Program-made: the position numbers and the translations under genes
The notes under the pieces: generated by a model
What the model saw: only the letters and a program-made list of their open reading frames with translations
What the model was told of the DNA's origin: nothing
The model's database searches: none
Part shown: one piece after another, positions 9,443-46,057 of the stretch
Layout: each line of letters opens with the position of its first letter
How positions within the stretch are numbered: the stretch's first letter is position 1
Origin: Patescibacteria group bacterium
GTDB lineage: Bacteria; Patescibacteriota; Minisyncoccia; Minisyncoccales; GWA2-38-27
DNA length: 64,000 nt
Assembly (NCBI GenBank): GCA_020148045.1
Contig: JAHCRG010000006.1
Coordinates: forward strand, 137,909 to 201,908
Reading direction: 5' to 3'

Positions 9443-9513
9443 TTCATTCTCCTTTCATTTTTCAGTTGAGAAGGAACATTTTTGTTTTTTGTTGGATGTA
9501 GTATAATATAATA

Positions 9514-9894
9514 ATGAGTATTTTTTTGCAAGGATTAATTTGGCAGTTTTTTGATGTGCCAAAAGCAATTTTAAAGGGCTGGAAAAATTTTCTTTTGTTT
9601 AATTTAAATTATTTTTCAGTTCCTATTCTTTTGAAAACCTTTTTTTCTCATTGGCGCAGATATCATTATCCTTATGGAAAAGTATTTGAGGCATGGAAAA
9701 ACATTGAGACATTTGTTTTTAATATGATGTCCAGAATTATTGGGGCTCTTTTAAGAACCATTTTTATAATTTTGGGACTATTCATAGAAGCTTTAATAAT
9801 TTTAGGAGGAACGATAGTATTTTTTGGCTGGCTTTTATTGCCAGTTTTATTATTGGCAGGATTATTATTCGGCTTAAAGCTCGTTTTTTACTAA
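9514..9894 (+). CDS. Small polytopic membrane protein, function unknown
   Basis: 126-aa ORF with three hydrophobic segments. TATAAT (9502-9507) lies 6 nt upstream of the ATG. Confidence 0.6.
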   Translation: MSIFLQGLIWQFFDVPKAILKGWKNFLLFNLNYFSVPILLKTFFSHWRRYHYPYGKVFEAWKNIETFVFNMMSRIIGALLRTIFIILGLFIEALIILGGTIVFFGWLLLPVLLLAGLLFGLKLVFY

Positions 9895-9910
9895 TTTTGT
9901 TTCATGACCT

Positions 9911-12412
9911 ATGTTCAACTTTAATCTTAAAAAAGCAAAGATATATCAAGCGGTGAAATGGGAAAAGTTTTCGTTTTTTAGATTTGCTAAAATTTTAAAG
10001 ATATTGTTTTTTGTTTTGTTTGTTTTAGTGTTTTTAGCATTTCTTTATGGATTTGTGCCGGAGAATTTCTCGCCAGAGACCAACAGGACTCTATTAGGTC
10101 TTTCAATAATTTTTCTTGTTTCAACTCTGAGTTCTTGGATTAAAGAAAGCTTTTTTAATTTAAAATTAAAAAAGCCAGAGCTTAAAGCTAATATTAGTGA
10201 AGCATTATTAGATCCGGAGAGCTATAACCTGGCTGAGTTTTTAAGCTTTGAAGCAGCTAAGGCGGTTAGTAAGTCCAAATTAAGCTCAACTCGTCTTTTT
10301 TATTTTATTTTAATTGATAACCCGAAATTAGATTTTATTTTCTTACGCGCCCTTTTGGATTCCAACGAGATTAAAAAAATATTAAAGAAAGAGTTAAAGG
10401 CCAAAGAATCCGATAATTTTCAAAGAACTATTCTTGAGGCCTTGGGAATAGCCCAGAAAAAAAATCATACCAGAATTGAAATAGGGGATGTCCTATCTGC
10501 TCTTGCCAAGCATAACCTGATTTTTAAAAGGATTTTAGTTAAACATAAACTCAAAGCCGAGGATATTGAAAATTTAACCTGGTGGTTGGAAAATATTAAA
10601 GAAAAAATCAAAAAAAGGAAAAGGTTCTGGGAATATGAAAATTTAGCTAAAAGAGGAACATTGGCTAAAGAATGGACAGCTGGTTATACGATAGCTTTAG
10701 ATAGATATTCCAAAGATTTAACTGATTCAATTAGGAAGAAGGATTTAGAATTTGTTGGCCATAAAGAAGAAATGAAGAGGATAGAAAGAATTTTAGCTAG
10801 AAGAGAAATTAATAATGTTTTAATAATTGGGGAACCAGGCACAGGAAAAAGAAGCATGGTTTATGCTTTAACCCAGATGAGTTTATTAGGCAGAAGTTTG
10901 CCTGGGGTGAGTTACAAGAGGGTGGTTGAATTAGATGTGCCGGCTTTACTGGCTCAACTTGAAAGTATGGAAGATGTTGAAGCTACTTTAGATAAAATTT
11001 TCCAGGAAGTAGTTTTGGCTGGCAATATTATTTTGGTGATTGATGGATTCCACAACTATATTGGCCAAGTTTCCAGGCCAGGAATAATTGATATTTCAGG
11101 AGTTATCGCACCCTATTTACGTTTTCCCCAATTTCAAATTGTAGCAATTACAACTTACGAAGGTCTTCACAGATATATTGAAAAAAATCCTTCTATCTTA
11201 TCTCTTTTTGGGAAAGTAGAGGTTTCAGGAATCTCCCAAAGGGAGACGCTTGTGCTTTTGGGGTATTTAACCTTTGCTCTTGAGAAAAGATACAAAATCT
11301 TTATTTCTTATCCTGCTATGCGAGAGATAATTTCTTTGACTGACCGTTATTTCCCTTCCCTTCATTTTCCCGAGAAAGCCATAGACATTTTAGATGAAGT
11401 AGCAGTTTATGTTGCGGGCTCAACAAGAGAAAAAGTAGTTTTGCCAAAGCATATAGCTAAGATTATTACCGAAAAGACCGAGATTCCGGTGGGAGAGATA
11501 GAGGCGAAAGAAAGAGAGGTTTTACTCAATTTAGAAAATTTAATTCATCAAAGAATTATTAATCAGGACGAAGCAGTAAAAGAAGTTTCAACTGCCCTTC
11601 GGAGAGCCAGGTCAGAAGTTACAGTAAGAAAAGGTTCAATGGGTTGCTTTTTGTTTTTAGGACCTACCGGGGTTGGTAAAACCGAAACCTCAAAAGCCCT
11701 GGCAGAGTATTATTTTGGTTCAGAAAAGAAGATGATAAGATTAGATATGTCAGAGTTTCAAGATATAAAAGACATCCCTAGATTGATTGGTTCTGCAACT
11801 GAGACAGGGCTTTTAACAACTCCGGTTCGGGAAAATCCCTTTTCTTTAATTCTTTTGGATGAAATTGAAAAAGCTAATCACAATATTTTGAATTTATTTT
11901 TACAGGTTCTTGATGAAGGTCATTTAACAGATGGTTTTGGAAGAAAGGTTGATTTTAAAAATTCAATAATTATTGCCACCAGTAATGCTGGTTATAAGGT
12001 GATTTTGGAAGCTTTAAAAAGAAAAACCGAATGGGCAGGAGTAAAACAAAAACTTTTAGATTATCTTTTTGAGAAAAGAATATTTAGACCAGAATTTATC
12101 AATCGTTTTGATGCAGTTGTCGTTTTCAGGCCCTTAACCAAAGAAAACCTTTTAGATATTGCTCAGCTGATGTTATCAAAATTAAAAAAGAATCTTCAAA
12201 AAAAAGGCATTGAATTTATAATTACAGAACCCCTCAAAGAAAAAGTAGTTGAATTAGGCTATAGCCCGGTTTTCGGGGCAAGGGCAATGAGAAGGGTTAT
12301 TCAGGATAAAGTAGAAAATGTTTTAGCTTCTGCCTTGCTTTCCGGCCAACTAAAAAGAGGGGATAGAGTAGAACTTGACCCAAAGAAATTTAAACTGATT
12401 ATTAATCCTTAA
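9911..12412 (+). CDS. Membrane-anchored ClpB/ClpC-like double AAA+ ATPase with a degenerate D1 module
   Basis: N-terminal TM segments, then Clp R-type repeats. D1 has GEPGTGKRS and ILVIDGFHN. D2 has the canonical GPTGVGKTE and LILLDEIEKA. The ClpB D2-small domain is present. Confidence 0.85.
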   Translation: MFNFNLKKAKIYQAVKWEKFSFFRFAKILKILFFVLFVLVFLAFLYGFVPENFSPETNRTLLGLSIIFLVSTLSSWIKESFFNLKLKKPELKANISEALLDPESYNLAEFLSFEAAKAVSKSKLSSTRLFYFILIDNPKLDFIFLRALLDSNEIKKILKKELKAKESDNFQRTILEALGIAQKKNHTRIEIGDVLSALAKHNLIFKRILVKHKLKAEDIENLTWWLENIKEKIKKRKRFWEYENLAKRGTLAKEWTAGYTIALDRYSKDLTDSIRKKDLEFVGHKEEMKRIERILARREINNVLIIGEPGTGKRSMVYALTQMSLLGRSLPGVSYKRVVELDVPALLAQLESMEDVEATLDKIFQEVVLAGNIILVIDGFHNYIGQVSRPGIIDISGVIAPYLRFPQFQIVAITTYEGLHRYIEKNPSILSLFGKVEVSGISQRETLVLLGYLTFALEKRYKIFISYPAMREIISLTDRYFPSLHFPEKAIDILDEVAVYVAGSTREKVVLPKHIAKIITEKTEIPVGEIEAKEREVLLNLENLIHQRIINQDEAVKEVSTALRRARSEVTVRKGSMGCFLFLGPTGVGKTETSKALAEYYFGSEKKMIRLDMSEFQDIKDIPRLIGSATETGLLTTPVRENPFSLILLDEIEKANHNILNLFLQVLDEGHLTDGFGRKVDFKNSIIIATSNAGYKVILEALKRKTEWAGVKQKLLDYLFEKRIFRPEFINRFDAVVVFRPLTKENLLDIAQLMLSKLKKNLQKKGIEFIITEPLKEKVVELGYSPVFGARAMRRVIQDKVENVLASALLSGQLKRGDRVELDPKKFKLIINP

Positions 12413-32812: not shown

Positions 32813-34591
32813 TTAGGGAATATAATAGATAAATATTGAGTTGCCGACCCGGGTTATTGGCTGATAATCGTCAAGCCAGCGATAGTAGCCGGTTGGTTGA
32901 TCAAAACCATGGGTAGGACTTCCTTTGCCTCCCTGAAGAAGGGTTGCCGAGACCGCCAGATAACTTCCTTGGGGAAGTTCTTTTTTATTACGATCGCCCC
33001 ACCAGGAAGCATATTTTTCTTTTAGATAATATTCGGTATCGCCTCCGCCAAAATAATCAACATAAATTTTCTCAATCTTATTTTCATCCACCCATTTTTT
33101 TAGTCGTTTCAAATCCTGGCCCCAATCATAGTTTGAATCCACCACATATTTGTATCCATTTTGGGGCCCTCCGGCAATTTCATTAAAATAGGTTAAGTAG
33201 TGAGGCCAAACCAAGAGAGAAGAAATTATGTAAAAGCCCAAAAGCACCGAAACAAGAGAAGTTCCCATTTTTTTCCGGGATATGCCGGGTATTCTTTTTA
33301 TCCATTTTGCTATTCCCAGACTAACTAAAATATAGGTAAAAGGAAAAACAGGCAAAAGGTGCCTTACTCCAATATTAAGAGTTCCAGTTATAGAAGTGAG
33401 CCAATAAATTATTAAAAATACCATCATTGAAAATTCGGGAAAATGATTTTTTATCCAATCTTTTAACCGATGAAAAGTATTTTGCCAAAAAGGCTTTTTA
33501 ATTATAATTAACCAGGCTGCATACAAAAGAACAATTAAAGTTAAAATATGAAAAGCTAAGGGTATTTTTAAAAGATAAACAGTCGGGAAATAATACCACC
33601 AGCCCCCATTTGAAATTTCATTAAGAAAATACACAGTATTGCCGCCAGCTACCCTTTGAGTAACCATTAGAAGTCCTAAAAGATAATAGGCATAGGGTCG
33701 GAGCACTGGTTTGTCAGCCATCCAGAGACAAAGATTTTTTAGAGGATTTATGCCGCTTGAAGCTAAAATAAATTCAGAATCTTGTAATTGGCGTTCGGCT
33801 GGATAATTTAAAAGATGAAATTGATAAACCGGCCAGATAAGAATCATTCCAATTATTCCTACAATTAGAGCCAGCCCGATGTATTTCAGAATTCCTAAGA
33901 GGCATTTTTTAGAACCCTTTTCTTGAGACCAAGCATAAATTACGGTAATTACAGCAAAGAAGGGAACAAGCAGGGCTAAGGAAAATTTTAAGAGCATTGA
34001 TAGCCCGAATATCAGCCCGGCTAAAATTATATTCTTTTTTGTCGGGCTTTTTAGAAATTTTAACCAAAAATAAGTAGCCAAGACCACTCCCAAAGCAGCT
34101 GCAATATCAGTAGTTACCAATCTCCCATGAGCCAGAAAAGTAGGGGAGAAGGAAAATAGGGTTAAGACCAAAAGAGCAACTTTGTTTCCGGCTAATTCTC
34201 TTGCCCAGCGAAAGAGGAACCAACCTAAAAATATTAAAAGCAAAATCATTGGGATTCGGGCCCAAAATACAATCTGATCAGGATTGTTCCCCGAACGATA
34301 CAAAAACTGAGAACCAAACCACCACTGTTCATTAATTCCCTCAGTCCAGGAAGCATGGTTTTTTGGGAAATTCAGGTCCAAAGATAGAAGAGGGACAGCA
34401 GCTAGGTCTTTTATCAATGGCGGATGCTCCGGGTTAATTCGAAAATCTTTCTGGGTTAAATAAGAATAGCCGGCCGGGATATGAGACATTTCGTCCATGG
34501 TGGCTGAATCATCTTTCATACTGAAAAAGCAAACTAAGAATACCGTAAGAAGCAGAAGACCAGCGATTAAATTTGTGAGACGGTTAGACAT
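32813..34591 (-). CDS. GT-C fold glycosyltransferase (family 39/83-like, polyprenyl-phosphate-sugar dependent)
   Basis: 592 aa and polytopic. The first-loop acidic motif is DDSATMDEMSHIPAGYSY. The C-terminal soluble domain is typical of PMT/ArnT-like enzymes. Confidence 0.7.
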   Translation of the reverse strand: MSNRLTNLIAGLLLLTVFLVCFFSMKDDSATMDEMSHIPAGYSYLTQKDFRINPEHPPLIKDLAAVPLLSLDLNFPKNHASWTEGINEQWWFGSQFLYRSGNNPDQIVFWARIPMILLLIFLGWFLFRWARELAGNKVALLVLTLFSFSPTFLAHGRLVTTDIAAALGVVLATYFWLKFLKSPTKKNIILAGLIFGLSMLLKFSLALLVPFFAVITVIYAWSQEKGSKKCLLGILKYIGLALIVGIIGMILIWPVYQFHLLNYPAERQLQDSEFILASSGINPLKNLCLWMADKPVLRPYAYYLLGLLMVTQRVAGGNTVYFLNEISNGGWWYYFPTVYLLKIPLAFHILTLIVLLYAAWLIIIKKPFWQNTFHRLKDWIKNHFPEFSMMVFLIIYWLTSITGTLNIGVRHLLPVFPFTYILVSLGIAKWIKRIPGISRKKMGTSLVSVLLGFYIISSLLVWPHYLTYFNEIAGGPQNGYKYVVDSNYDWGQDLKRLKKWVDENKIEKIYVDYFGGGDTEYYLKEKYASWWGDRNKKELPQGSYLAVSATLLQGGKGSPTHGFDQPTGYYRWLDDYQPITRVGNSIFIYYIP

Positions 34592-34667: not shown

Positions 34668-35420
34668 ATGAATAACCAAAATCAAAAAATTCACCTTTCA
34701 GTGATTATTCCAGCCTATAATGAAGAGAAAAGAGTACCAAAGACCCTGCGGGAAATTAATGATTATTTGAAAAAACAGTCTTATTTGTCGGAAATTATCG
34801 TTGTTAATGACGGTTCAACCGATAGAACTTCAGAAGTAGTCAAAGAATTACAGAAAATAATTCCAAATTTAAAATTGATAAATATCGAAAACTCGGGTAA
34901 AGGCTACGCAGTCAAAAAAGGAATACTTGAGGCCAAAGGAGAATATCGAATTTTTACTGATGCCGATAATGCAACTTCAATTAATCAGGTTGAGAGAATG
35001 TGGCCAGAGTTTTCCAAGGGATACGATGTTGTCATCGGTTCGCGAGATGTTAAAGGGGCGGTCCTGGCTGTACCTCAACCCTGGTTAAGAAAGGTAATTT
35101 TGGGAGGAGGTTTTAAATTAGTTAGAAAAATAATTATTGGTCTTTGGAAGATTCAAGATACTCAGTGCGGTTTTAAGGGTTTTAAAGAAAAGGCAGGGCA
35201 AGATATTTTTTCCAGAGTCACAATTTACCGTTTTGGATTTGATCCCGAGGTCTTGGTTATAGCAAAAAGACTGGGCTATAAAATTAAAGAAATTCCCATA
35301 ACTTGGATAAATGATCCAGAAAGCAAGGTAAAATTTAAAAATATGGTTAAAATGTTTTTTGAGATATTAAAAATCAGATGGAATCTAATTTTGGGAAAGT
35401 ATAAGAATATAATAAAATAA
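34668..35420 (+). CDS. GT2 glycosyltransferase (polyprenyl/dolichyl-phosphate hexose synthase-like)
   Basis: LSVIIPAYNEE, VNDGSTDRT, TDADNAT (DxD), QCGFKGF. Confidence 0.82.
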   Translation: MNNQNQKIHLSVIIPAYNEEKRVPKTLREINDYLKKQSYLSEIIVVNDGSTDRTSEVVKELQKIIPNLKLINIENSGKGYAVKKGILEAKGEYRIFTDADNATSINQVERMWPEFSKGYDVVIGSRDVKGAVLAVPQPWLRKVILGGGFKLVRKIIIGLWKIQDTQCGFKGFKEKAGQDIFSRVTIYRFGFDPEVLVIAKRLGYKIKEIPITWINDPESKVKFKNMVKMFFEILKIRWNLILGKYKNIIK

Positions 35421-35424
35421 ATTA

Positions 35425-36429
35425 ATGCCAAAGATTGTTAAAAATGCTTTAGGGAATTTTTTGGTGATTTGCCTTATTTTTACTTTGGTGACGGTTTGGA
35501 TTTTTTCCGGCTGGCCCCAGATTTGGCAGAAACCGCCAGTGCCACCGGAAGTAAAGGAGGTTAAAGCTGCGCCGGAAACGCTTTCATTATATGTTAACAC
35601 AGAGGTTTCGGTTGGTGTTTGGACTACCGCGGGTACGGTTCCTTATCTTAACGCACAAGACCAACCAACCAACTATATTTATAGTATTGGCAGAAATTCT
35701 GATTCTGGTGTTTATGGCTTTGCAGACACTGCTCAAACAGGCACGATTAATAGCGTTTATCTTTATATTTATGCTTACGGAGTTGCTTCTACTAATTTTA
35801 CAACATACATAAATTCTACTGATACCGGTTTAGGACCACCTACAAGTTGGGGTTGGGTAAGCGTTAATGTGTCAACAATTCTTACTACTTGGGACGCTAT
35901 AAATGCTGCCACTTGTTATTTTGATAGACCAAATACTACCGATAATGCTGGGGTTGATGCCGCCTACTTTTATGTAGATTATACTCCTGCTCCTACGTTG
36001 GATATCACTGCTCCTGAGAATGTTCAGATGCCTGATTATACTTTAGGAGGAGTGGGATATAGCGAGAGAAATTTTAATGCTGACCCTCCGGCTTTAGTTC
36101 AGGTGACTGCTGAAGCTGGTTTTACTGTTACTGTTTCTTCCACTAATCTTACTGGTGGGGGTAACACCATTCTTGCCTCTGATGTTAAATTAAAAACTGA
36201 CGATAATCCCGAAACCAATCCCACCCAAATTCCAGCGGCAAATTGCAGTGGTTTTAGCGAGATAGACGAGCCGATTAGCGATGAATATAGTTTAGATTCT
36301 ACCAGAACCATTGTAACCACTTCATCTGGCAGCGGCACCTGCGATATTTATCCGACTATTAAAGTTTACATTTCTAATAATCTTTTGGCTGCGGAGGTTA
36401 CTGGTACATTAACTTTTACTGTTCAGTAA
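35425..36429 (+). CDS. Surface protein with an N-terminal TM anchor and a WxL-like C-terminal domain
   Basis: TM segment LVICLIFTLVTVWIF. The C-terminal GFTVTVSSTNLTG...LASDVKLK...VTGTLTFTVQ resembles the two conserved WxL-domain segments (F in place of W). Confidence 0.5.
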   Translation: MPKIVKNALGNFLVICLIFTLVTVWIFSGWPQIWQKPPVPPEVKEVKAAPETLSLYVNTEVSVGVWTTAGTVPYLNAQDQPTNYIYSIGRNSDSGVYGFADTAQTGTINSVYLYIYAYGVASTNFTTYINSTDTGLGPPTSWGWVSVNVSTILTTWDAINAATCYFDRPNTTDNAGVDAAYFYVDYTPAPTLDITAPENVQMPDYTLGGVGYSERNFNADPPALVQVTAEAGFTVTVSSTNLTGGGNTILASDVKLKTDDNPETNPTQIPAANCSGFSEIDEPISDEYSLDSTRTIVTTSSGSGTCDIYPTIKVYISNNLLAAEVTGTLTFTVQ

Positions 36430-36490: not shown

Positions 36491-37645
36491 TTATTTCTTT
36501 TTTGGAATAAATAGAGTGTCTCCTTTTTTTAATATATAGGGCGGTTTGAGACGATTAATTCGGGCCAGTTTTTTCCAGGAAACACTATATTTTTTAGCAA
36601 TATCCATAATAGTCTGCTTTTTTTCTACAGTATGACTTTCCATAGTAAGCTTGACTTTAGCTAACCAGAGATGCCAGAGCAACCGGCCAAGGAAGAAAAG
36701 AATAATTAAGACAACTAAGAAAAATATTAATGGCCAGGGAATAATAAAGAAAGAAATATTTTTTTCAATGGTTTGATTATCACCATAATTGATAAGGAGG
36801 CTGGCTCGGACAAAATTAAAAGCCGGAGGATTTTCCCAGCGTCGAGGAAGGAGAGTGGATTTTACAGGAAAGGTAGTACCCAGGGCAATGTTTTCCAGGG
36901 TAGCTATATGACCGCCAAAAATATCACGTATCTCAATGGTAGCCAAAGGATTAAGGTGGACATTACCGGTGTTTTTTAAAGCAATGTTAAGCTGTCCATA
37001 TTTATGAAGTCCTAAAACATGTTTAATCTTTTCCCAGGTAGTATTTTTATCGGTAAGACGTTTATTATGAATAGTAAAATCAAAACCAGTTAGCTCAATT
37101 TTTTTAACAATTTCACCTGGTACCGTTTCATAGACTCGCACCCCTACCCGGGTGATAATGGTTAAAGCCCCTTCTCTGCCGCCTTTCTGCCTTTCTAAAT
37201 TCTCCACTATAATTCCACCCATATGATCACCCACCTCAGCGTCTTGAGGAATAGAGATAGTGAAATAGATAAGCTGCTCAGTATCATTTGGAATAACTAA
37301 TTTATAACTCTCCATTTCAATCCACCCGCCAATACCCAGACGTTCATCGCCTTCATTATTCAGGGCAAAAGCACCGTCTGGAGTGAGGCCAGCATCTACT
37401 GGATAAATTTTTATTTCTACATCTTCACCGGTACGATTTTTAATTCTTACTGCGTCCCGCTTACTTTCTTCTTTGTCAAGATTGTAAATAAACCAGATAT
37501 CAGAATATTTGACATCAAGGTCAGGAAAAGCTGGTAAAATACTTAAGCCTCCTATCCCGGCTGCCTTAACCTCCATGACCCCGCCTATTATGCCTATTAT
37601 GATTATTCCTATAATTATTAACTTTATTAAATTATTTTTTTTCAT
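36491..37645 (-). CDS. DUF916/DUF3324-like cell-surface protein with a TM and a C-terminal LysM domain
   Basis: Start at MKKNNLIKL (37645), avoiding overlap with the upstream gene. Ig-like body similar to the WxL-cluster CscA class. TM segment FFIIPWPLIFFLVVLIILFFL. LysM segment HTVEKKQTIMDIAKKYSVSWKKLARINRLKPPYILKKGDTLFIP. Confidence 0.6.
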   Translation of the reverse strand: MKKNNLIKLIIIGIIIIGIIGGVMEVKAAGIGGLSILPAFPDLDVKYSDIWFIYNLDKEESKRDAVRIKNRTGEDVEIKIYPVDAGLTPDGAFALNNEGDERLGIGGWIEMESYKLVIPNDTEQLIYFTISIPQDAEVGDHMGGIIVENLERQKGGREGALTIITRVGVRVYETVPGEIVKKIELTGFDFTIHNKRLTDKNTTWEKIKHVLGLHKYGQLNIALKNTGNVHLNPLATIEIRDIFGGHIATLENIALGTTFPVKSTLLPRRWENPPAFNFVRASLLINYGDNQTIEKNISFFIIPWPLIFFLVVLIILFFLGRLLWHLWLAKVKLTMESHTVEKKQTIMDIAKKYSVSWKKLARINRLKPPYILKKGDTLFIPKKK

Positions 37646-37649
37646 AATT

Positions 37650-38387
37650 TTAATTCTTTTGGGCGAGACAGACAACTGAAGTGCCAAAGGGAAGATTGAT
37701 ATATTTAAGTAATTGAGCTTCTATTTTTAATGTAAAAATTAAAAGATTATTAAGAAATTTTGGTAAAATAACGTAAGAAGTTTGAGGAGTTAAATTACCT
37801 TTGGATAATATACCCTTTAATAAACGATAACCTAGAATTAAAGGAAAGGTAAAAGTAATAACATAACTTCGTTTCACTACCCGAAAACCGGCTTGATTGA
37901 GTTTTTGGTGGAGCTGAGAAGCAGTATAGCGGCGGAAATGATGAAGGGCTTCGTCATGCTCTGACCAAATAAACTGGTAGGCAGGAGCAGTAATTAAAAG
38001 TAGACCTTGGCTTTTCAATACTCGATGAAATTCCTTGAGAGTCTTTAAATCATCAGCAATATGTTCAATTACATCGAGGGCGGTAACTAAATCAAAAGAT
38101 TTATCACCAAAAGGAAGTTTTTCTGCTTTGGCTTGCCGGAGATTTTTAAAACCCCGTTTGCGAGTAAATTGTAGAGCTTTTTTTGAAGAATCAACTCCGA
38201 TAACCTTTCCAAATTTTCCCAAGGTGGCCAAATTGATACCGGTCCCACAGCCTACATCTATTATAACAAAAGGTTCTTCATTGGGCAAATAGTTTTTTAG
38301 CAGCCTATAAATAATTTTACCTCTACCTACATGCCACCAGTAGTAATTTTCGAATTGATATAATTTTTCGTATTCGTTTTTCTCCAT
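37650..38387 (-). CDS. Class I SAM-dependent methyltransferase
   Basis: Motif I VIDVGCGTGINL. Post-I and motif II pattern (DLVTALDVIEH). Confidence 0.85.
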   Translation of the reverse strand: MEKNEYEKLYQFENYYWWHVGRGKIIYRLLKNYLPNEEPFVIIDVGCGTGINLATLGKFGKVIGVDSSKKALQFTRKRGFKNLRQAKAEKLPFGDKSFDLVTALDVIEHIADDLKTLKEFHRVLKSQGLLLITAPAYQFIWSEHDEALHHFRRYTASQLHQKLNQAGFRVVKRSYVITFTFPLILGYRLLKGILSKGNLTPQTSYVILPKFLNNLLIFTLKIEAQLLKYINLPFGTSVVCLAQKN

Positions 38388-38389
38388 AA

Positions 38390-40003
38390 CTAAGGTTTTT
38401 TAATAATAATACTAATTTCATCTTGATAAACTATTTGCCAATCGGCATTTACTAAAATATACGAAACAACCCGTTGAGGATATGCTAATACCCAATCAAT
38501 GTCATATTTATCAATAAATTGAGCATAATTCATTTTACCACTTAAAAAATTATCATGATCTTCAAAGGGATTTCTGCCCGGTAATTGCCAGATTGCCATC
38601 CGACCATCAATAAACACCTTTTTCTCGGGCAATTGCCAGGTTAAATAGCCTCCCCAATTATATTCATTAAACATCTGACCGGGAAGTTCATCAAGATGCT
38701 GTTTGATATATTGAACCGCCCCGTAAGGGTAGTTTCCGGCTTGGGCAGCTTTCTCGGGAGAATTAATTAAAGGAAAAGTTTGGGTTACTCTCTGCCAACC
38801 AATCAATACAGTTACTAAAAGTAAAAGCGAAATTACTAATTTTGAACGTGACATTGAAGAAAGAGTTTCACCTACCAGATTTTTCATTGATGAAACCCAT
38901 AAAGGAAGGGTAATGACAATATAGACTGGCATATGGCGCCAAGAAGAAAAACCAAAATAAAGAGAGATTAAGGCAAAAGCTATTAAAGTAAAGCCCAGTT
39001 TTTTTATATTCAGCAGCACTAAAAATCCTAAAAAAATCACATAGATAATAAAGAAATAGCTCATGGCATTAGCTGAAGTAACATTCTGCCATTCACCAAT
39101 ATGTTCTTTTACATAAGCTCCGGATTGAGTTTGAGCAAAAGTATTATAAATCTCTTTATAAATTCCCACTCCATAAGGATTAACCAAGGTTGCCAGTATA
39201 CTTATTAAAAATATTAATGCCAGCTTTCCTAAAAGTTGTTTGCTTAATACTTCATTTTGGAACCACCTGATATTAAATAAGCGTTTTTTTAATTTTACCA
39301 ACCAAATTTTGATTAGGGTTTGGGAATAAGAAACAGAAGAAGATTGCCAAAAAGAAATCTTTTGGTAGAAAAACTTTGTTGTTTCTAAAAGAAGAAATAA
39401 AAATAATACCACCAGACCAATAGAAAAACCGCCATGTAAATTTACCCAGAAAAGAAAAATTAAAGGTAGCCAAAAGATTAATTTATTGGAGGGAGAACGA
39501 CGCCAGCGGAATAATAAAAAAATAATTAAAGCTAAACTAAAAAGAGTAATGACCTGAGGTCGAATTCCAATAATGGGAACACTGGCCAGGGAGCCAATTA
39601 GGGCAGCAGTGATCCGGTATTCCCAGCTGGTAAAAATAGCTGAGGCAGCTAATAAGAAAGCGGCGCTGGCTATGAGAGAAAAAATAATTACTAAGGGCCA
39701 AAAACCAAAATTATTATAAATCCAGAAAAAAATAATATCAGTAAACCACTCGTGGGCAATCCAGGGGTAGTCAGCCATACTATGGGAGAGCATATCTAAA
39801 CGGGGAATAGTACGATGTTCTAAAAAATATCTACCATTAGCTAAATGCCAGCCCAAATCAGGATCTAAAGGAGCTTTTAAATTAATAAAGAACATTGCAA
39901 TTAAAGCAAGAAATATAAAAATGAGCAATCTCTTTTGCGGATAAAATTTAAAATCCCTAATTCTTTTGATTAGGGATTTACTAAATTTACCAGATTGATT
40001 CAT
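38390..40003 (-). CDS. Large polytopic membrane protein, putative GT-C-type glycosyltransferase
   Basis: 537 aa with at least 11 TM segments. The first-loop acidic motif is PLDPDLGWHL. The C-terminal soluble domain and genomic context support the call, but the function is inferred. Confidence 0.5.
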   Translation of the reverse strand: MNQSGKFSKSLIKRIRDFKFYPQKRLLIFIFLALIAMFFINLKAPLDPDLGWHLANGRYFLEHRTIPRLDMLSHSMADYPWIAHEWFTDIIFFWIYNNFGFWPLVIIFSLIASAAFLLAASAIFTSWEYRITAALIGSLASVPIIGIRPQVITLFSLALIIFLLFRWRRSPSNKLIFWLPLIFLFWVNLHGGFSIGLVVLFLFLLLETTKFFYQKISFWQSSSVSYSQTLIKIWLVKLKKRLFNIRWFQNEVLSKQLLGKLALIFLISILATLVNPYGVGIYKEIYNTFAQTQSGAYVKEHIGEWQNVTSANAMSYFFIIYVIFLGFLVLLNIKKLGFTLIAFALISLYFGFSSWRHMPVYIVITLPLWVSSMKNLVGETLSSMSRSKLVISLLLLVTVLIGWQRVTQTFPLINSPEKAAQAGNYPYGAVQYIKQHLDELPGQMFNEYNWGGYLTWQLPEKKVFIDGRMAIWQLPGRNPFEDHDNFLSGKMNYAQFIDKYDIDWVLAYPQRVVSYILVNADWQIVYQDEISIIIKKP

Positions 40004-40035: not shown

Positions 40036-40647
40036 TTACGAAACCGTTAAAGTTAGTACCGCAGTATAATCTCCAGCAGCATCCCCGGCTTCAATACTAA
40101 GATTCATCACGGTGTTATCTAATTGGAAAGCACCAGCCCCATTGCCAGCACTCGCTGTCATCATATTAACAGCATTAGTGGCATTAGACCCCAAAGCCTG
40201 GTTATCTGAACCAGCAGTAACCCCGGTGTTATCAGATGAATTTAAGTTAGTAACATCACCAGGACTCGTTTTTGCTCGAGCATAGGTATTTAAGATATTA
40301 GTACCTGCTTCCAGATTATTAGCAGTAGCAGTTAAGGACCAACCGCCAGAATTGCCCCGATAGTCAGTGACCTGGATATTGTTCATATTCTCCTGTTGGT
40401 TTGAAGCTTGACCAGCAGTAGCATCGGGCCAGTCGAAATCTGTATTTTCTGCAGCCGTATCTAAGGAGCCAGTGGTAATATTAACAGCCAAATTGGTAGT
40501 ATCTTGATTACTAGCAGTAGCAACATTGAGAGAAGTAAAGAGCATCCCAAAAAGTATGCTCAAAATTAAAAGAGAATAAATTCGTTCTTTAATAGTTTTT
40601 ATTTCGTTTTTTACCTGGGACATATTTGTATTTCTTAATTGTAGCAT
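40036..40647 (-). CDS. WxL-domain-like secreted surface protein
   Basis: Signal/TM segment, then VTDYRGNSGGWSLTATANNL (WxL motif 1) and the C-terminal GDYTAVLTLTVS (motif 2). An alternative start is at 40623. Confidence 0.6.
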   Translation of the reverse strand: MLQLRNTNMSQVKNEIKTIKERIYSLLILSILFGMLFTSLNVATASNQDTTNLAVNITTGSLDTAAENTDFDWPDATAGQASNQQENMNNIQVTDYRGNSGGWSLTATANNLEAGTNILNTYARAKTSPGDVTNLNSSDNTGVTAGSDNQALGSNATNAVNMMTASAGNGAGAFQLDNTVMNLSIEAGDAAGDYTAVLTLTVS

Positions 40648-40736: not shown

Positions 40737-41765
40737 ATGCTTAGTAATAGTCTTTTAAAAAAGACCTCCCTGCTGATTTTATTTATTATTTTTAGTTTAT
40801 TAATTAGTGAATATTACACTTTCGCCGCTGATACTCAACTTCATATTGAGATTACCGCAGTTTGCGGCGACGGCGAGAGGGAAGGAAACGAGGAATGTGA
40901 TGGAGATGATTTAGGAGGCCAAACCTGTCAGGGGCTTGGTTATGAAAGCGGGAATCTAAGCTGCTATCCAGCCGGCGGACCCGACGAATGCACCTTTAAT
41001 ACTTCTAATTGCACAACTACAGCGCCGCCTTCGGGCGGCGGAGGCGGTGTTGCGCGAGTTGCAACTAAAGTTATCTTCAAAGGAAAAGCTTATCCAAATT
41101 CCTCAATCACAATCTTAAAAGATGGCAAAATAACAACTACTGTTAAGGCAGATTCCAAAGCAGATTTTAGAGCAGAAATTACTAATATCACTGCTGGAAT
41201 TTATACTTTCGGTCTCTGGGCTAAGGATAAAGATGGTATAAAATCTATTACTTATACCTTAACTTTTCGTGTTTTCTCAAATACCACAACTACGGTTAGC
41301 GGAATTTATTTACCCCCGACTATTGATTTAGATAAAACTGCTCTTCAAAAAGGAGAAACTTTAAATATTTTTGGCCAGGCTGTGCCAGAAGTAGAAGTTG
41401 ATGTTCATATTCATTCATCAGAGATTATTGAACAAGTTCAAACTGATGAAATTGGCGCATGGCTTTTGGCATTTGATACTCAACCTTTGGAAGAAGGTTC
41501 TCATATTACAAAAGCTCGTTTTAACTTAAACGAGGAAGAAAGAAGCGGATTTAGCGGGCTTTTGACCTTTTATATAGGAGAAGAAGGTCTGCCTGAAGAA
41601 TTTTGTCCTCGTGCTGATTTAAACAAAGATGGAAGAACAAATTTAGTTGATTTTTCTATTTTACTTTATTGGTGGGGCAGGGCTAATGCTTGTGTTGACC
41701 AGAACAGGAACGGGATAGTGGACTTGCCAGATTTTTCAATTATGATGTATTACTGGAGCGGCTAA
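40737..41765 (+). CDS. Secreted protein with a Cys-rich CGDG repeat, Ig-like domains and a C-terminal dockerin
   Basis: Signal peptide. CGDGEREGNEECDGDDLGGQTC (Myxococcus-type Cys-rich repeat). Duplicated EF-hand-like dockerin segments DLNKDGRTNLVDFSILLYWW and DQNRNGIVDLPDFSIMMYYW. Confidence 0.7.
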   Translation: MLSNSLLKKTSLLILFIIFSLLISEYYTFAADTQLHIEITAVCGDGEREGNEECDGDDLGGQTCQGLGYESGNLSCYPAGGPDECTFNTSNCTTTAPPSGGGGGVARVATKVIFKGKAYPNSSITILKDGKITTTVKADSKADFRAEITNITAGIYTFGLWAKDKDGIKSITYTLTFRVFSNTTTTVSGIYLPPTIDLDKTALQKGETLNIFGQAVPEVEVDVHIHSSEIIEQVQTDEIGAWLLAFDTQPLEEGSHITKARFNLNEEERSGFSGLLTFYIGEEGLPEEFCPRADLNKDGRTNLVDFSILLYWWGRANACVDQNRNGIVDLPDFSIMMYYWSG

Positions 41766-41770
41766 ACTAT

Positions 41771-42679
41771 ATGACAAATCAAAAATCAAAAATTATTATT
41801 TTAATTATTGGTCTTCTTTTATTTCCTGTTATTGCTTTTGCAGCAACCTTGTATTTAGAACCATCCCAAGGAGAATATCAGCCAGAAGATACTTTTATAG
41901 TGAAGATAAAAATTGATATTGAAGAAGAATGTATTAATACTGTAAAGGTTGATTTAAAGTTTTCTCAGGAGATATTAGAAGCAGTTGATTTCAGTCAAGG
42001 TGATTCTATTTTAACTCTTTGGTTGGAAACTCCTCAGATTAATCAATCCGAGGGTTTAATTTCTTTTGTTGGCGGAGTACCGGCAGGTTATTGCGGGGAA
42101 ATACCTGGCGGCGTAGGAGAGAGTAATTTATTAGGAAGAATTATATTTAAAGTACAGGAAAGCGGGATAAAGCAAGCAGAAGTAAAGTTTTTACATACTT
42201 CACAAGTATTATTAAATGATGGGCTGGGGACTTTGGCTGAATTAAGTACCAAAGGAGTAGCATATACAATTTCGCAGGAGAGATTAGGACCTGCAAAAGA
42301 TGAATGGCAGCAAGAACTTGAAGAAGACAAAATTCCCCCAGAACCATTTGAAATAGAAATTCATCAGGATTCGGCCATTTTTGAGGGTAAATATTTTATT
42401 ATCTTTTCTACCACTGATAAACAAACTGGTCTTAGTCATTTTGAGTTTAAGGAGGGGGAAAGAGATTGGGAAAAAGCGGAAAGCCCTTATCTATTGGAAG
42501 ACCAAAGCTTAAAGAGTATAATAAAAGTGAAAGCAGTTGATAAAGCAGGAAATGAAAGGATTGCTGAATATATTCCAGAAATTCCAAAGAAACCATTTCC
42601 TTGGTGGATAATCCCCGTAGTTTTATTCGGTGTCTTGGTAGTAATTTGGATATGGAAAAAATACATAAAAAAACACTAA
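41771..42679 (+). CDS. Cohesin-domain protein with a C-terminal TM anchor
   Basis: Signal peptide, then ATLYLEPSQGEYQPEDTFIVKIKID...VKVDLKFSQEILEAVDF (cohesin-like). C-terminal TM segment WWIIPVVLFGVLVVIWIW followed by KKYIKKH. Confidence 0.6.
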   Translation: MTNQKSKIIILIIGLLLFPVIAFAATLYLEPSQGEYQPEDTFIVKIKIDIEEECINTVKVDLKFSQEILEAVDFSQGDSILTLWLETPQINQSEGLISFVGGVPAGYCGEIPGGVGESNLLGRIIFKVQESGIKQAEVKFLHTSQVLLNDGLGTLAELSTKGVAYTISQERLGPAKDEWQQELEEDKIPPEPFEIEIHQDSAIFEGKYFIIFSTTDKQTGLSHFEFKEGERDWEKAESPYLLEDQSLKSIIKVKAVDKAGNERIAEYIPEIPKKPFPWWIIPVVLFGVLVVIWIWKKYIKKH

Positions 42680-44133
42680 TTTTAGCTTTGTGTATTTTTG
42701 CGCTCTTTTTTGCATGCTTTTGGGTAAATGAAGCCCAGGGGGCTTCGGTTTCTTTGTATTTATCTCCTTCCAGCGGCACTTATACTGTTGGCAGTACTTT
42801 TCCTGTTGCAGTTAAAGTAAGTAGCGGAGGACATGCAATTAACGCTGCCGAAGGAGTTTTAGTTTTCAATACAAAAGAGCTTGAAGTAGTTAGCGTTTCA
42901 AAATCAAGCTCAATTTTTACTCTCTGGACTAATGAACCGACTTTTTCTAATTCTACTGGAAATATAACTTTTGGCGGAGGCACGCCCGACAAATTTACCG
43001 GAACTTCAGGAACTATTATTACTATTACTTTTAAAGCTAAAGCTAATGCTTCAGCTAAGGTAACTTTTTCCTCAGGTTCAGTTTTAGCAGCTGATGGAAA
43101 GGGAACAAATGTATTAGATAATATGGTTTCTGGAACTTATGTTATTCAAAAAAAAGTAATTACTGAACCTCCAGAAGAATACACTCCTCCAGTTCCGGCC
43201 GGAGCTCCAGCTGCTCCTATTGTTTCTTCTCCTACTCATTCTGACCCGGATGAATGGTATTCTAATAATAACCCAGAATTTTCCTGGGAGCTCCCTCCAG
43301 ATGTTACCGGAGTAAGTTTAGCGCTTCATCCAGAACCTTTTGCTGATCCCGGACCGATTTCAGATGGTTTAATGGTATCAAAGAAATATGAAAACGTTGA
43401 AGGTGGAATCTGGTATTTCCATATTAAATTTAAGAATAAATATGGCTGGGGCAAGATTACTCATCGAAAAGTTTTAATTGCCTTAGAGGCACCGATTATT
43501 ACTGATTTTCCTCAGACAGTTCAAGTAGAAGATATTTTAGTTATTAAGGGAGCTTCTAAATACCCGGATGCCACAGTTACAGTTTTTGTTAAAAAAGAAG
43601 GAGAAGAACCAATTACTAGAGATATTAAGACAGATAGTGAAGGTAATTGGACTTTTATCTATGACAAAAGTTTAGAGAAAGGAACTTATCAGGTTTGGGC
43701 AAAAATAACTGACAGCCGAGGCGCAAAGAGCTACTCAACCGAAAAAATTACTATCGCAGTTACCTTGCCAGCTTTAATAAAGTTTGGTAAAATAACTATA
43801 GGTTATCTAACAGTTATGATTACTCTTATATCCTTAATTATATTATTAATATTAACAATCCTTTTGTTAATATTAATAACCTTTTATGCTTGGTATCGAA
43901 TTTCTCTTTGGCGGAAAAGAATTGGGAGAGAAACAGAGGAGGCGAAAAGAAGTGTTGAACAGGCCTTTAGTAATTTGCGTAAAGAAGTTCGAGAGCAGGT
44001 TGAATATTTTGATAAGAGACGAGGCTTATCAAAGGGAGAAAAAGAAATTCGCGATAAATTACAAAAAGCCTTAAGGGTTTCTGAAGAAGCTATTAGCAAA
44101 GAAATCAAAGATGTAGAAAAAGAATTGGAATGA
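42652..44133 (+). CDS. Cohesin-domain protein with Ig-like modules, a TM and a cytoplasmic coiled-coil tail
   Basis: Start at MEKIHKK (42652). Signal peptide, then SVSLYLSPSSGTYTVGSTFPVAVKVSSGGHAINAAEGVLVFNTKELEVVSV (cohesin-like). TM segment at ITIGYLTVMITLISLIILLILTILLLILITFYAW. Confidence 0.62.
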   Translation: MEKIHKKTLILALCIFALFFACFWVNEAQGASVSLYLSPSSGTYTVGSTFPVAVKVSSGGHAINAAEGVLVFNTKELEVVSVSKSSSIFTLWTNEPTFSNSTGNITFGGGTPDKFTGTSGTIITITFKAKANASAKVTFSSGSVLAADGKGTNVLDNMVSGTYVIQKKVITEPPEEYTPPVPAGAPAAPIVSSPTHSDPDEWYSNNNPEFSWELPPDVTGVSLALHPEPFADPGPISDGLMVSKKYENVEGGIWYFHIKFKNKYGWGKITHRKVLIALEAPIITDFPQTVQVEDILVIKGASKYPDATVTVFVKKEGEEPITRDIKTDSEGNWTFIYDKSLEKGTYQVWAKITDSRGAKSYSTEKITIAVTLPALIKFGKITIGYLTVMITLISLIILLILTILLLILITFYAWYRISLWRKRIGRETEEAKRSVEQAFSNLRKEVREQVEYFDKRRGLSKGEKEIRDKLQKALRVSEEAISKEIKDVEKELE

Positions 44134-44190
44134 ATGGTTAAAACTTTCACTTGAAGTAGTCAAAAGATGTTCTTTTGGCTACTTTGTTTG

Positions 44191-44230
44191 CCCCCACACC
44201 AATATTTTGGTAGTGGGGGTCGAATTTTTT
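44191..44230 (+). terminator. Intrinsic terminator of the CCCCCACACCAA hairpin family
   Basis: cccccacaccaa-tatt-ttggtagtggggg plus tcgaatttttt. Confidence 0.75.
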
Positions 44231-44314: not shown

Positions 44315-46057
44315 ATGGTTAAGAAAAAGAGTATGGCCAAGAAAAAGAAAACTAAACCTCGTACCACTGTTCGAAAAAAGAGGTTGGACAAAAGAACTGG
44401 AAAAAAAGTGCTACGGGGTAAAAAAATAGAAAAGAAAAAGAAAACTTTAAAACCTACCAAAAAGAGGAAAGTTAAGGTTAAGGCTAAATTAAAAGTAAAG
44501 AAAAGGGTAAAAATAAGAAGAAAACCCAAGAGGACTAAGTCTGTAAAACGTCGAACTATTGTACGAAAAAAGGTGCGGGTTAAACCTCCTTTTTCTGACA
44601 TTACAATTCACAAAACCAAAATCAGGGTAATCGGGATTGGAGGAGGAGGTGGTTCAATTGTTTCAGAGATTGTTTCCAGGATAAAGAAGGCAGATTTTGT
44701 AATAGCTAATACTGATATTAGATCTCTTAGGGCAGTAAGACAAGTAAAGCGATTTCAGTTTGGTCAGAGTTTAACCAAAGGATTGGGTACTGGGATGAAT
44801 ACTGAGTTAGGGGAGCTGGCTGCCCTAGATGAGAAAGAGAAAATAAAAAAGCTTTTTGAGGGGCAAGATCTTTGTATTATAGTTGCCTGTTTGGGAGGAG
44901 GAACTGGCTCAGGGGCTACCCCTGTTTTCGCTAAGATTTCAAAGAATTTAGGTTGCCTTACTTATGGAATTTTTACTTTACCTTTTGAATTTGAGGGAGA
45001 GAAAAAAATGGAGATTGCCAAAGAATCTCTTGAGAAGATAAGGCCTAACCTTAATGCTTATTCAGTTATCCCTAATGAAAGAATTTTTCAAATAATTGAT
45101 AAAGATACGCCTTTAAAAGATGCTCTTTCCGCTATTAACGAAAGATTAGCTGAGAACTTAGAAGGATTAATTGGGATGATTTACTTGCCCGGTCTCATTA
45201 ACATTGATTTTGCTGATTTGAGAACGATTCTTGGTGGTCGCGGTCGTTTAAGTTATTTAAATACAATAGAAATTGAAGAGCCCGATAGGGAAGAGGTAGC
45301 TAAAAAAGTAATTTCCAGTCCCCTCTATCCTTACACTATCAAAGGAGCCAAGGGGATTTTATATAACATAGTAGGAGGAAAGACGCTTCAGCTTTCAGAA
45401 GTTTCTCAGCTGTCAAAGATAATTGCTGATTCCATAAATAAAAATGCAAAAATTATCTTCGGCATTAGTCAAGGTCAGAAATATCAAGGGAAAATCAAGA
45501 TAACCCTGTTAGCTACAGGTTGTGGGAAAAAGAGATTTTTGTTAAAACCCACTGAGAAGAAAACCAAATCCTTTACTTTTCGAAAGAAGCCAAAAAGGAA
45601 AAAGAAAACCCCAAAGACAAAAAAGCCAAAAATAGAAAAGAAAGAAAAGCCGAAATCAAAAACCAAGATAGTAAGGAAACCCAAATCCAAGCCAAAAGTA
45701 AAAATAAAAGAAAAAATTAAAATTAAAACTAAACGCAAAACTGTTAGTAAGAAAGCTTTATCCCGCACCTTTTCTCGATTAAAAAAGGTGAGGGGTTTAA
45801 TTAAAAAGAAACCCAGGAAAACTAAGCCCAAAAAAGAAAAAGTAATTCCCAAAACTAAAAGGCAACTCAAAAGGAAAGAGAAAAAAACTAAAGGGCCTGC
45901 CCGCCATTCGCCTAAGGCGAAGCCGATGGCAGGCGAGAAAGTTAGACGAAATGCTCTTCAATTAAAAAAGGTTATTGAAGAAGAAGAAAAAGAATTATTA
46001 GAAAGGGAAAAGATTTGGGAAACCCCGGCTATATTTAGAAGAAAAATAAATGATTAA
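44315..46057 (+). CDS. ftsZ: Cell division GTPase FtsZ with long polybasic N- and C-terminal extensions
   Basis: Core has IRVIGIGGGGGSIVSEI, GLGTGMNTELG, GGGTGSGATPVFA and NIDFADL. It is flanked by about 95 aa (N-terminal) and about 170 aa (C-terminal) of K/R-rich sequence. Confidence 0.9.
   Translation: MVKKKSMAKKKKTKPRTTVRKKRLDKRTGKKVLRGKKIEKKKKTLKPTKKRKVKVKAKLKVKKRVKIRRKPKRTKSVKRRTIVRKKVRVKPPFSDITIHKTKIRVIGIGGGGGSIVSEIVSRIKKADFVIANTDIRSLRAVRQVKRFQFGQSLTKGLGTGMNTELGELAALDEKEKIKKLFEGQDLCIIVACLGGGTGSGATPVFAKISKNLGCLTYGIFTLPFEFEGEKKMEIAKESLEKIRPNLNAYSVIPNERIFQIIDKDTPLKDALSAINERLAENLEGLIGMIYLPGLINIDFADLRTILGGRGRLSYLNTIEIEEPDREEVAKKVISSPLYPYTIKGAKGILYNIVGGKTLQLSEVSQLSKIIADSINKNAKIIFGISQGQKYQGKIKITLLATGCGKKRFLLKPTEKKTKSFTFRKKPKRKKKTPKTKKPKIEKKEKPKSKTKIVRKPKSKPKVKIKEKIKIKTKRKTVSKKALSRTFSRLKKVRGLIKKKPRKTKPKKEKVIPKTKRQLKRKEKKTKGPARHSPKAKPMAGEKVRRNALQLKKVIEEEEKELLEREKIWETPAIFRRKIND

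Follow-up and report, generated by a model that had tools for sequence, protein, structure and literature searches.

What might a three-gene locus that pairs one dockerin protein with two cohesin proteins, and encodes no recognizable enzyme, do at the surface of a Patescibacterial cell? The genes lie in a stretch of 64,000 nucleotides (nt), here called the window, from a Patescibacteria group bacterium (GCA_020148045.1, contig JAHCRG010000006.1, positions 137,909-201,908, forward strand). All three are on the plus strand, at window positions 40737-41765 (gene A), 41771-42679 (gene B) and 42652-44133 (gene C). We take the source to be a Patescibacterial metagenome-assembled genome, since protein A is 100% identical to KJA13_02475, a "hypothetical protein" of a Patescibacteria group bacterium. 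For comparison we used 72 related loci from GTDB species representatives (labeled with L numbers, e.g. L002 and L030), whose six-frame open reading frames (ORFs) were searched with phmmer and with custom hidden Markov models (HMMs) for dockerins and cohesins. On balance, we favor the view that A, B and C make up a non-enzymatic cohesin-dockerin surface module, kept across Patescibacteria of the Parcubacteria/Paceibacteria type, that tethers A and displays its variable head.

Protein A ends in a dockerin

Protein A is a predicted secreted protein of 342 amino acids (aa), delineated by its ORF, Pfam comparisons and an AlphaFold2 (AF2) monomer model. Its final 51 residues (292-342, nt 41610-41762) comprise two tandem F-hand repeats of about 22 residues each, with the loops DLNKDGRTNLVD and DQNRNGIVDLPD and a modeled helix after each loop. 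The loops span residues 294-306 (DLNKDGRTNLVDF) and 321-333 (DQNRNGIVDLPDF), placing D294, N296, D298, N302 and D305 of repeat 1, and D321, N323, N325, D329 and D332 of repeat 2, at the calcium-loop positions. These positions (1, 3, 5, 9 and 12) are Asp or Asn in 26-29 of 29 and 37-40 of 40 aligned relatives. A profile of the A family aligns over both repeats with the solved dockerins 2y3n_B (E 1e-4), 5nrm_B and 4fl4_A. The preliminary description of this DNA had proposed that A ends in a duplicated calcium-binding dockerin, and the near-invariant loop residues and the match to dockerins of known structure bear this out.

Dockerin profile searches with the single sequence gave a mixed answer. 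Protein A scores 19.5 bits against Pfam Dockerin_1, under the cut-off of 22.9 bits, yet its orthologue in L002 reaches 24.9 bits and also passes DUF4215 and Big_6, and our custom dockerin HMM assigns A 103 bits as its sole match in the window. A precomputed match to PF00404 is present in 32 of 120 A homologues among the matches listed. A cysteine lies just ahead of each repeat, C290 (nt 41604-41606) and C319 (nt 41691-41693), and the two are kept together in most relatives (18 and 17 of 29; 34 of 39 and 27 of 40). Their placement suggests a disulfide clasp across the dockerin.

Ahead of the dockerin, protein A has a predicted signal peptide (residues ~1-31, a hydrophobic N-terminal segment ending in YTFA/AD), a Cys-rich DUF4215-like module (residues 43-95, nt 40863-41021), a Gly-rich linker, and two Ig-like domains (residues 111-191, nt 41067-41309, and residues 208-280, nt 41358-41576). 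The Cys-rich module has six cysteines and includes CGDGEREGNEECD at residues 43-55; relatives pass Pfam DUF4215. Big_6 falls below cut-off in A, and both Big_6 and Big_13 are weak there but pass in relatives. In the AF2 model (predicted local distance difference test, pLDDT, 84.4), a signal helix is followed by the Cys-rich module, two beta-sandwich domains and the post-loop helices at residues 303-311 and 330-341. The A-family profile also matches an Ig domain of Bap, and a Foldseek search of the PDB with the model returned tandem-Ig adhesins only (Bap, SiiE), the 50-aa dockerin being too small to surface. No enzyme family was matched by A in Pfam or NCBIfam. The architecture given earlier for this N-terminal part, a CGDGxxExxEECD Cys-rich repeat followed by Ig-like domains and no recognizable enzyme, is thus the one we find.

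Proteins C and B carry cohesins above transmembrane anchors

The cohesin assignment is most direct for protein C, a 493-aa membrane protein. Its N-terminal domain (residues 31-166, nt 42742-43149) passes Pfam Cohesin at 36.8 bits (cut-off 24.1) and is modeled by AF2 with a pLDDT of about 90 (mean over the protein 83.4). This beta-sandwich superposes on solved cohesins in Foldseek with template-modeling (TM) scores of 0.67-0.75 and root-mean-square deviations (r.m.s.d.) of 2.3-3.6 Å, among them 1g1k_A (TMt 0.75), 4dh2_A (0.72; r.m.s.d. 2.4 Å), 2vn5/2vn6 (0.67-0.71) and 6kgf. The top match of the whole model is 2w1n, the cohesin-FN3 region of Clostridium perfringens GH84C (E 1.6e-10). Full-length C and B profiles compared with PDB sequences gave no significant cohesin match, so the fold search and Pfam were required for this assignment.

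The cohesin of C is preceded by a predicted signal peptide (residues ~1-30, with an AQG/A site-like N-terminus) and followed by a Pro-rich linker, a middle beta domain (residues 190-276, nt 43219-43479) and an Ig domain that passes Pfam Big_13 (residues 282-371, nt 43495-43764; 34.7 bits, cut-off 27). A transmembrane segment called from hydropathy (residues 378-420, nt 43783-43911) leads into a predicted helical cytoplasmic tail (residues 421-493, nt 43912-44130). These 73 residues are modeled as two helices with a break at 456-460, and in the homologue alignment they are as conserved as the ectodomain, with the consensus ...KPGLTKxEKExRDKLQEALxxSExFIxKEIKDVEKELE. A profile of the tail matched no known family in the PDB or Pfam, returning spurious repeat- or coiled-coil-like matches only.

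Window C is a short form that lacks an OmpL47-type domain of about 90 aa found in most homologues (570-600 aa), and its transmembrane segment carries a 7-residue insertion, TILLLIL, relative to the homologue alignment. We also observed giant proteins of 1,700-5,817 aa that match the C profile in 7-31 separate stretches (P0241, 4269 aa; P0242, P0245, P0246, P0288 and P0380), mainly through the middle "THPD..WY" domain of C and the OmpL47-like domain. Because the matches are repeated in this way, the stalk domains of C also appear to serve as repeats in very large surface proteins.

Protein B (302 aa, from its ORF and profile alignment) is, judged by profile comparison, a paralogue of C. Its own match to Pfam Cohesin is below cut-off (E 0.069, 13.8 bits), yet 13 of 29 B orthologues match the family (best 2.4e-5), and an hhalign comparison of the B-family and C-family profiles gives 100% probability (E 9.4e-48). 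In that alignment the N-terminal domain of B (residues 25-169, nt 41843-42277) pairs with the C cohesin, and its second domain (residues ~186-265, nt 42326-42565; NCBIfam barrel_OmpL47, E 9e-5, below cut-off) pairs with the ~90-aa domain of the usual 570-600-aa C proteins that is deleted in window C. On the strength of this homology and of the orthologue matches we take B to be a cohesin protein; the custom cohesin HMM scores it at 177 bits. B begins with a predicted signal peptide (residues ~1-24, AFA/A site-like) and ends in a hydropathy-called transmembrane segment (residues 274-299, nt 42590-42667) and a short basic tail, KKYIKKH.

Both proteins thus have a single C-terminal hydrophobic segment followed by basic residues, which indicates type-I topology and places the cohesin at the end away from the membrane. 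The outline in the preliminary description, two proteins that start with cohesin-like domains and end in membrane anchors, the second with a cytoplasmic tail of about 70 aa, agrees with these results: the cohesin follows for C from Pfam and the AF2 model and for B from paralogy, and the tail is conserved and predicted to be helical. Neither Pfam nor NCBIfam matched any of the three proteins to an enzyme or carbohydrate-binding module (CBM) family.

The three genes form a predicted transcription unit

The head-to-tail arrangement of A, B and C was obtained both from the ORF listing and from an independent gene call on the identical public contig. The longest ORF for C begins with TTG at 42601 (42601-44133); the start called on the public contig is the ATG at 42652. 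A spacer of 5 nt lies between A and B, and the first 28 nt of C fall within B (42652-42679), the same overlap that was noted when the three ORFs were first described. Downstream of C, on the same strand and ahead of an FtsZ gene, lies a hairpin of the 17-bp class followed by a U-run, resembling an intrinsic terminator (44186-44225). Its predicted folding energy is -24.5 kcal/mol (z -5.26), and none of 200 shuffled sequences folded as well. The 5-nt gap, the overlap and the terminator after C together lead us to predict that A-B-C is a three-gene transcription unit, closed by this hairpin. A scan for sigma-70 promoters was uninformative (18 sites against 12.2 +/- 3.0 expected).

The dockerin-cohesin order recurs across Patescibacteria

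The C family is very large: at least 863 matches in a 90%-cluster database, mostly 570-600 aa, and 3,376 matches at E<=1e-30 among 1.84 billion 50%-cluster representatives. Named members in the 90%-cluster database are "cohesin domain-containing protein" entries from Patescibacteria, Parcubacteria or Nealsonbacteria. The A family has 874 matches. Nearly all 72 loci carry Patescibacterial labels (Nealson-, Kaiser-, Wildermuth-, Falkow-, Giovannoni- and Sungbacteria, Spechtbacterales, Minisyncoccales). Four contigs with the full cluster, L022, L008, L066 and L071, are instead labeled Promethearchaeota (Loki_b32), Aminicenantia or Gammaproteobacteria; their gene content is of Patescibacterial type, and they are therefore probably mis-binned rather than true occurrences outside the lineage.

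We counted synteny in the 45 loci with at least 2.5 kb of sequence upstream of the first cohesin gene. A dockerin gene precedes the first cohesin gene on the same strand in 44 of them, usually tens of nucleotides away, and a B-type gene is present in 35. Since the arrangement is kept across dozens of species, it is not due to chance. Each locus encodes one dockerin protein and between one and five cohesin proteins with transmembrane anchors; by the custom HMMs, the entire window contains exactly one dockerin and two cohesins. The additional paralogues that we sampled (in L049, L054 and L057) all have a signal peptide, a cohesin, a stalk and a transmembrane segment, and the conserved tail occurs on the last paralogue only. 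One locus, L034, has no B-type gene and carries an Hsp20/alpha-crystallin-like gene (9462-9968) between its dockerin and cohesin genes.

Among relatives of A, the C-terminal Ig-Ig-dockerin part is constant and the heads vary. The dockerin occupies the extreme C-terminus in 42 of 46 proteins, which range from 285 to 993 aa and differ in their N-terminal heads. It is also the most conserved of eight segments compared, with a mean pairwise distance of 0.37 against 0.45-0.66 for the other seven. The long head of the L034 protein is homologous (27% identity over 198 aa, E 2e-7) to that of an L030 protein with a WxL-like strand at its C-terminus, so that one type of head can be borne by either kind of anchor. 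Twelve loci (L027, L028, L029, L030, L032, L033, L035, L039, L040, L044, L045 and L070) further encode a protein of about 250 aa with a cohesin at ~50-170 and a dockerin at ~200-247, some 0.7 kb downstream of C (e.g. L030:12401-13162). This protein, which is absent from the window, resembles an adaptor scaffoldin.

In relatives the trio belongs to a longer string with WxL-like genes

In relatives, A, B and C close a longer same-strand series that runs from large WxL-like protein(s) through a WxLIP-like transmembrane protein to A, B and C. Genes for one or two large secreted proteins and for small WxL-like proteins lie upstream of A, followed by the gene for a membrane-anchored Ig-like protein. 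In Kaiserbacteria-type loci a WxL-like gene sits between A and B. Such an insertion is also present in the fully flanked loci of the group with the ~250-aa adaptor-like protein (L028, L030, L032, L033 and L044), of which L030 is the one whose ORFs were read. Most Patescibacterial members score under the Pfam cut-offs for WxL and WxLIP.

Genes of the same kinds lie just upstream of A in the window. A small WxL-domain surface protein (40036-40647, minus strand) passes Pfam WxL at 38.4 bits (cut-off 25; PF13731 on the public contig) and is divergent from A over an 89-nt intergenic region. On the same strand, 36491-37687 encodes a WxLIP-like protein with a DUF916/WxLIP_PGBD domain (29.4 bits, cut-off 27.3), a second Ig-like domain, a transmembrane segment and a C-terminal LysM (36.3 bits); WxLIP_HBD was not detected in it with Pfam. 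In an hhalign comparison (95%, E 2.6e-8) it is homologous to the membrane-anchored protein whose gene immediately precedes A in relatives. A large WxL-like secreted protein (35425-36429, plus strand) has no Pfam match, but its N-terminus resembles that of the proteins of 745 and 447 aa with which the cluster starts in relatives (phmmer 62 bits to L002_745) and its C-terminus, ...TGTLTFTVQ, forms a WxL-like strand. A WxL cluster has been defined as at least one WxLIP and at least two WxL proteins within four genes (PMC10599100). Set against that definition, the window holds one WxL and one WxLIP_PGBD protein that pass Pfam, and 35425-36429 is a second WxL candidate by similarity only.

Firmicute clusters consist of small WxL, large WxL and WxLIP proteins (PMC10599100; PMC1534035), and the Patescibacterial string accordingly has the appearance of a WxL-type cluster to which a cohesin-dockerin set has been joined. 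The earlier view of the trio as a self-contained system does not hold up, given this longer gene string in relatives and its counterparts in the window.

Several other genes adjoin these. Between 32813 and 40003, the minus strand encodes a PMT_2 protein-mannosyltransferase-like membrane protein (32813-34591), an S-adenosylmethionine (SAM) methyltransferase (37650-38387) and a polytopic membrane protein of 537 aa that matches no family (38390-40003); a GT2 glycosyltransferase is encoded at 34668-35420. These surface-biogenesis genes may serve the glycosylation of surface proteins. In the WxLIP-like protein, the LysM follows the single C-terminal transmembrane segment; a type-I topology would put this peptidoglycan-binding module on the cytoplasmic side, and its predicted topology or role is thus unusual. 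The FtsZ gene beyond the terminator (44315-46057, plus strand; 580 aa, with Tubulin and FtsZ_C passing Pfam) encodes long Lys-rich N- and C-terminal extensions. In the orthologue from L002 (468 aa) the Lys-rich N-terminus is short, and the C-terminal extension, rich in Lys and Pro, is similar.

Discussion

Proteins A and C share the two module folds of cellulosomal type-I pairs, such as Clostridium thermocellum OlpC-Doc435 (4dh2) and the Clostridium cellulolyticum structures 2vn5 and 1g1k. As in those pairs, it is the carried protein that ends in the dockerin and the cell-anchored protein that bears the cohesin. In other respects the two differ: we find no glycoside hydrolase, CBM or multi-cohesin scaffoldin, each cohesin protein bears one cohesin, the anchor is a C-terminal transmembrane helix instead of surface-layer homology domains or a sortase motif, one dockerin faces two to five cohesins, and the lineage is Patescibacteria. 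The dockerin of A also departs from cellulosomal ones in its unusually aromatic helices (DFSILLYWW and DFSIMMYYW) and its conserved cysteine pair. We therefore rejected a cellulosome on the absence of enzymes, CBMs and a multi-cohesin scaffoldin, the single cohesin per protein, and the presence of the only dockerin in 64 kb on a non-enzymatic protein. Because the trio recurs across the lineage without enzymes, its probable use is in tethering at the cell surface and not in the degradation of cellulose.

Cohesin and dockerin modules are reportedly widespread in all three domains of life, as surveyed by Peer and colleagues in 2009. Outside cellulose degradation, C. perfringens GH84C (2w1n) and a pair from Archaeoglobus fulgidus offer precedents, the latter a working cohesin-dockerin pair in a non-cellulolytic organism (PMC12484212, PMC9705933). 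The C. perfringens modules reside on secreted enzymes and toxins, whereas no enzymes are involved here. What sets the Patescibacterial system apart is that a secreted stalk protein bears the dockerin and transmembrane-anchored paralogues bear the cohesins, in a lineage-wide operon with single cohesins in paralogous arrays, a conserved tail on the last one, and a link to WxL- and WxLIP-like genes.

Csc gene clusters of Firmicutes include, besides WxL-type genes, genes for LPXTG proteins. Two reports describe WxL/Csc clusters as comprising small WxL proteins, large WxL proteins and a WxLIP protein built as DUF916-DUF3324-TM, in which secreted surface proteins are held by a transmembrane-anchored Ig-like protein (PMC10599100; PMC1534035). 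Likewise, the window and related loci combine, in one cluster, a WxL protein and a WxLIP_PGBD protein that pass Pfam with large WxL-like proteins. They differ in that the portions available of those reports mention no cohesin or dockerin genes (PMC10599100; PMC1534035), and in the LysM that follows the transmembrane segment of the window WxLIP.

In the arrangement that we favor, A, exported by its predicted Sec-type signal peptide, consists of a variable head, which in the window is a single disulfide-rich DUF4215-like module, two Ig-like stalk domains and a two-repeat dockerin. B and C each carry one cohesin at the membrane-distal N-terminus, on a stalk with a single beta domain (B) or two (C), above a C-terminal transmembrane helix. 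The dockerin of A would plug, in a calcium-dependent manner, into the cohesin of B, of C or of both, and docking would keep the head of A at the surface of the cell without a covalent bond and at a fixed distance from the membrane. Together with the neighboring WxL and WxLIP wall-associated proteins, the module would act as one multi-protein surface complex, and the tail of C would either oligomerize the anchor or contact a cytoplasmic partner. From the domain architecture, the module probably presents variable binding heads, for adhesion to a partner cell or a substrate, rather than catalysis. The tethering idea put forward at the outset fits the dockerin-to-cohesin order in 44 of 45 loci and the C-terminal dockerin beneath variable heads; what it got wrong was the independence of the trio from its neighbors.

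Several observations weigh against this arrangement. Window A and B are both under the Pfam cut-offs. One dockerin per two to five cohesins reverses the cellulosomal ratio, and some cohesins may therefore bind dockerins encoded elsewhere, or something else. No cytoplasmic partner gene is conserved beside the operon in the 72 related loci. A role in host adhesion is a plausible extrapolation from architecture and lineage lifestyle. Mirror-tree partial correlations between the dockerin and the B and C cohesins, with other domains controlled, were close to zero (0.04 and -0.06), a result that with 38 taxa and ambiguous paralogues is uninformative and does not speak against binding. The lack of a specific co-evolution signal, the surplus of cohesins and the sub-threshold scores would also suit a reading in which the B and C domains bind other dockerins, a glycan or another ligand instead of A, the EF-hand pair of A is a calcium-stabilized cap or binds another partner, and co-location reflects co-regulation only. 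We consider this improbable in view of the dockerin gene directly upstream of the cohesin genes in nearly every locus counted, the translational coupling and overlap inside the operon, the adaptor-like proteins that carry both modules in the same loci, and the near-invariance of the calcium-loop and helix residues of the dockerin, as expected of a conserved protein-protein contact.

A, B and C could instead be structural subunits of a WxL-type wall complex with a housekeeping part in envelope organization, such as scaffolding or spacing of the wall or S-layer, and not in adhesin display to a host; cohesin-dockerin contact would then do no more than assemble the complex. The string that, in relatives, joins the trio on one strand to large WxL-like and to WxLIP-like genes, the WxL-like gene between A and B in Kaiserbacteria-type loci, and the adjoining WxL, WxLIP-LysM, PMT_2 and GT2 genes of the window are all compatible with such a role, as are the size and conservation of the family, typical of a core envelope function, and the strong conservation of the dockerin and the C tail. 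The heads of the dockerin proteins, however, vary greatly in length and content, which is more typical of ligand-facing parts, and Firmicute WxL clusters are themselves read as host- or substrate-binding (PMC10599100, PMC1534035), so that we regard this role as possible but unlikely. A bolder extension of surface display, in which the WxL-like, WxLIP-like, dockerin and multi-cohesin string is a lineage-defining surface organelle of Paceibacteria-type Patescibacteria for host attachment, transmembrane-anchored cohesins on graded stalks hold interchangeable dockerin-tagged heads and the invariant tail of the last cohesin protein relays or organizes contact inside the cell, strikes us as doubtful. 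We rate as very improbable a coupling to the divisome, in which the C tail would contact FtsZ and so tie the surface complex to the site of division. In its favor, the tail is helical and highly conserved, and C is followed by an FtsZ gene in the window, L002 and L003; against it, FtsZ is found in none of about 70 other loci within the fetched flank (<=10 kb), a strong terminator separates the two genes, and the tail profile matches no known FtsZ-binding family. As a general feature of the system, FtsZ linkage was rejected, the adjacency being confined to the window, L002 and L003, with the terminator in between.

Our literature search on cohesins, dockerins or WxL proteins in Patescibacteria, the candidate phyla radiation (CPR) or Parcubacteria found no description of a system like the tethering module we favor, and two published accounts of Parcubacteria-methanogen symbioses mention neither cohesin nor dockerin. 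By its modules it is a cohesin-dockerin system and not mechanistically surprising. Most attachment candidates published for Patescibacteria are type IV pili or generic Ig/PKD proteins (PMC10936435; bioRxiv 10.1101/2022.04.20.488981).

Little is known of how ultra-small Patescibacteria organize the cell surface or fasten themselves to partner cells. The operon is abundant, with thousands of family representatives, its gene order is strongly conserved, and its modules have well-understood, easily tested binding chemistry; for a lineage without cultivated members, it is therefore a concrete and tractable candidate for a role in attachment or in assembly of the surface. Cohesin-dockerin biology would gain from it a transmembrane-anchored, enzyme-free, operon-encoded form linked to WxL-type clusters, and protein engineering could gain new orthogonal cohesin-dockerin pairs.

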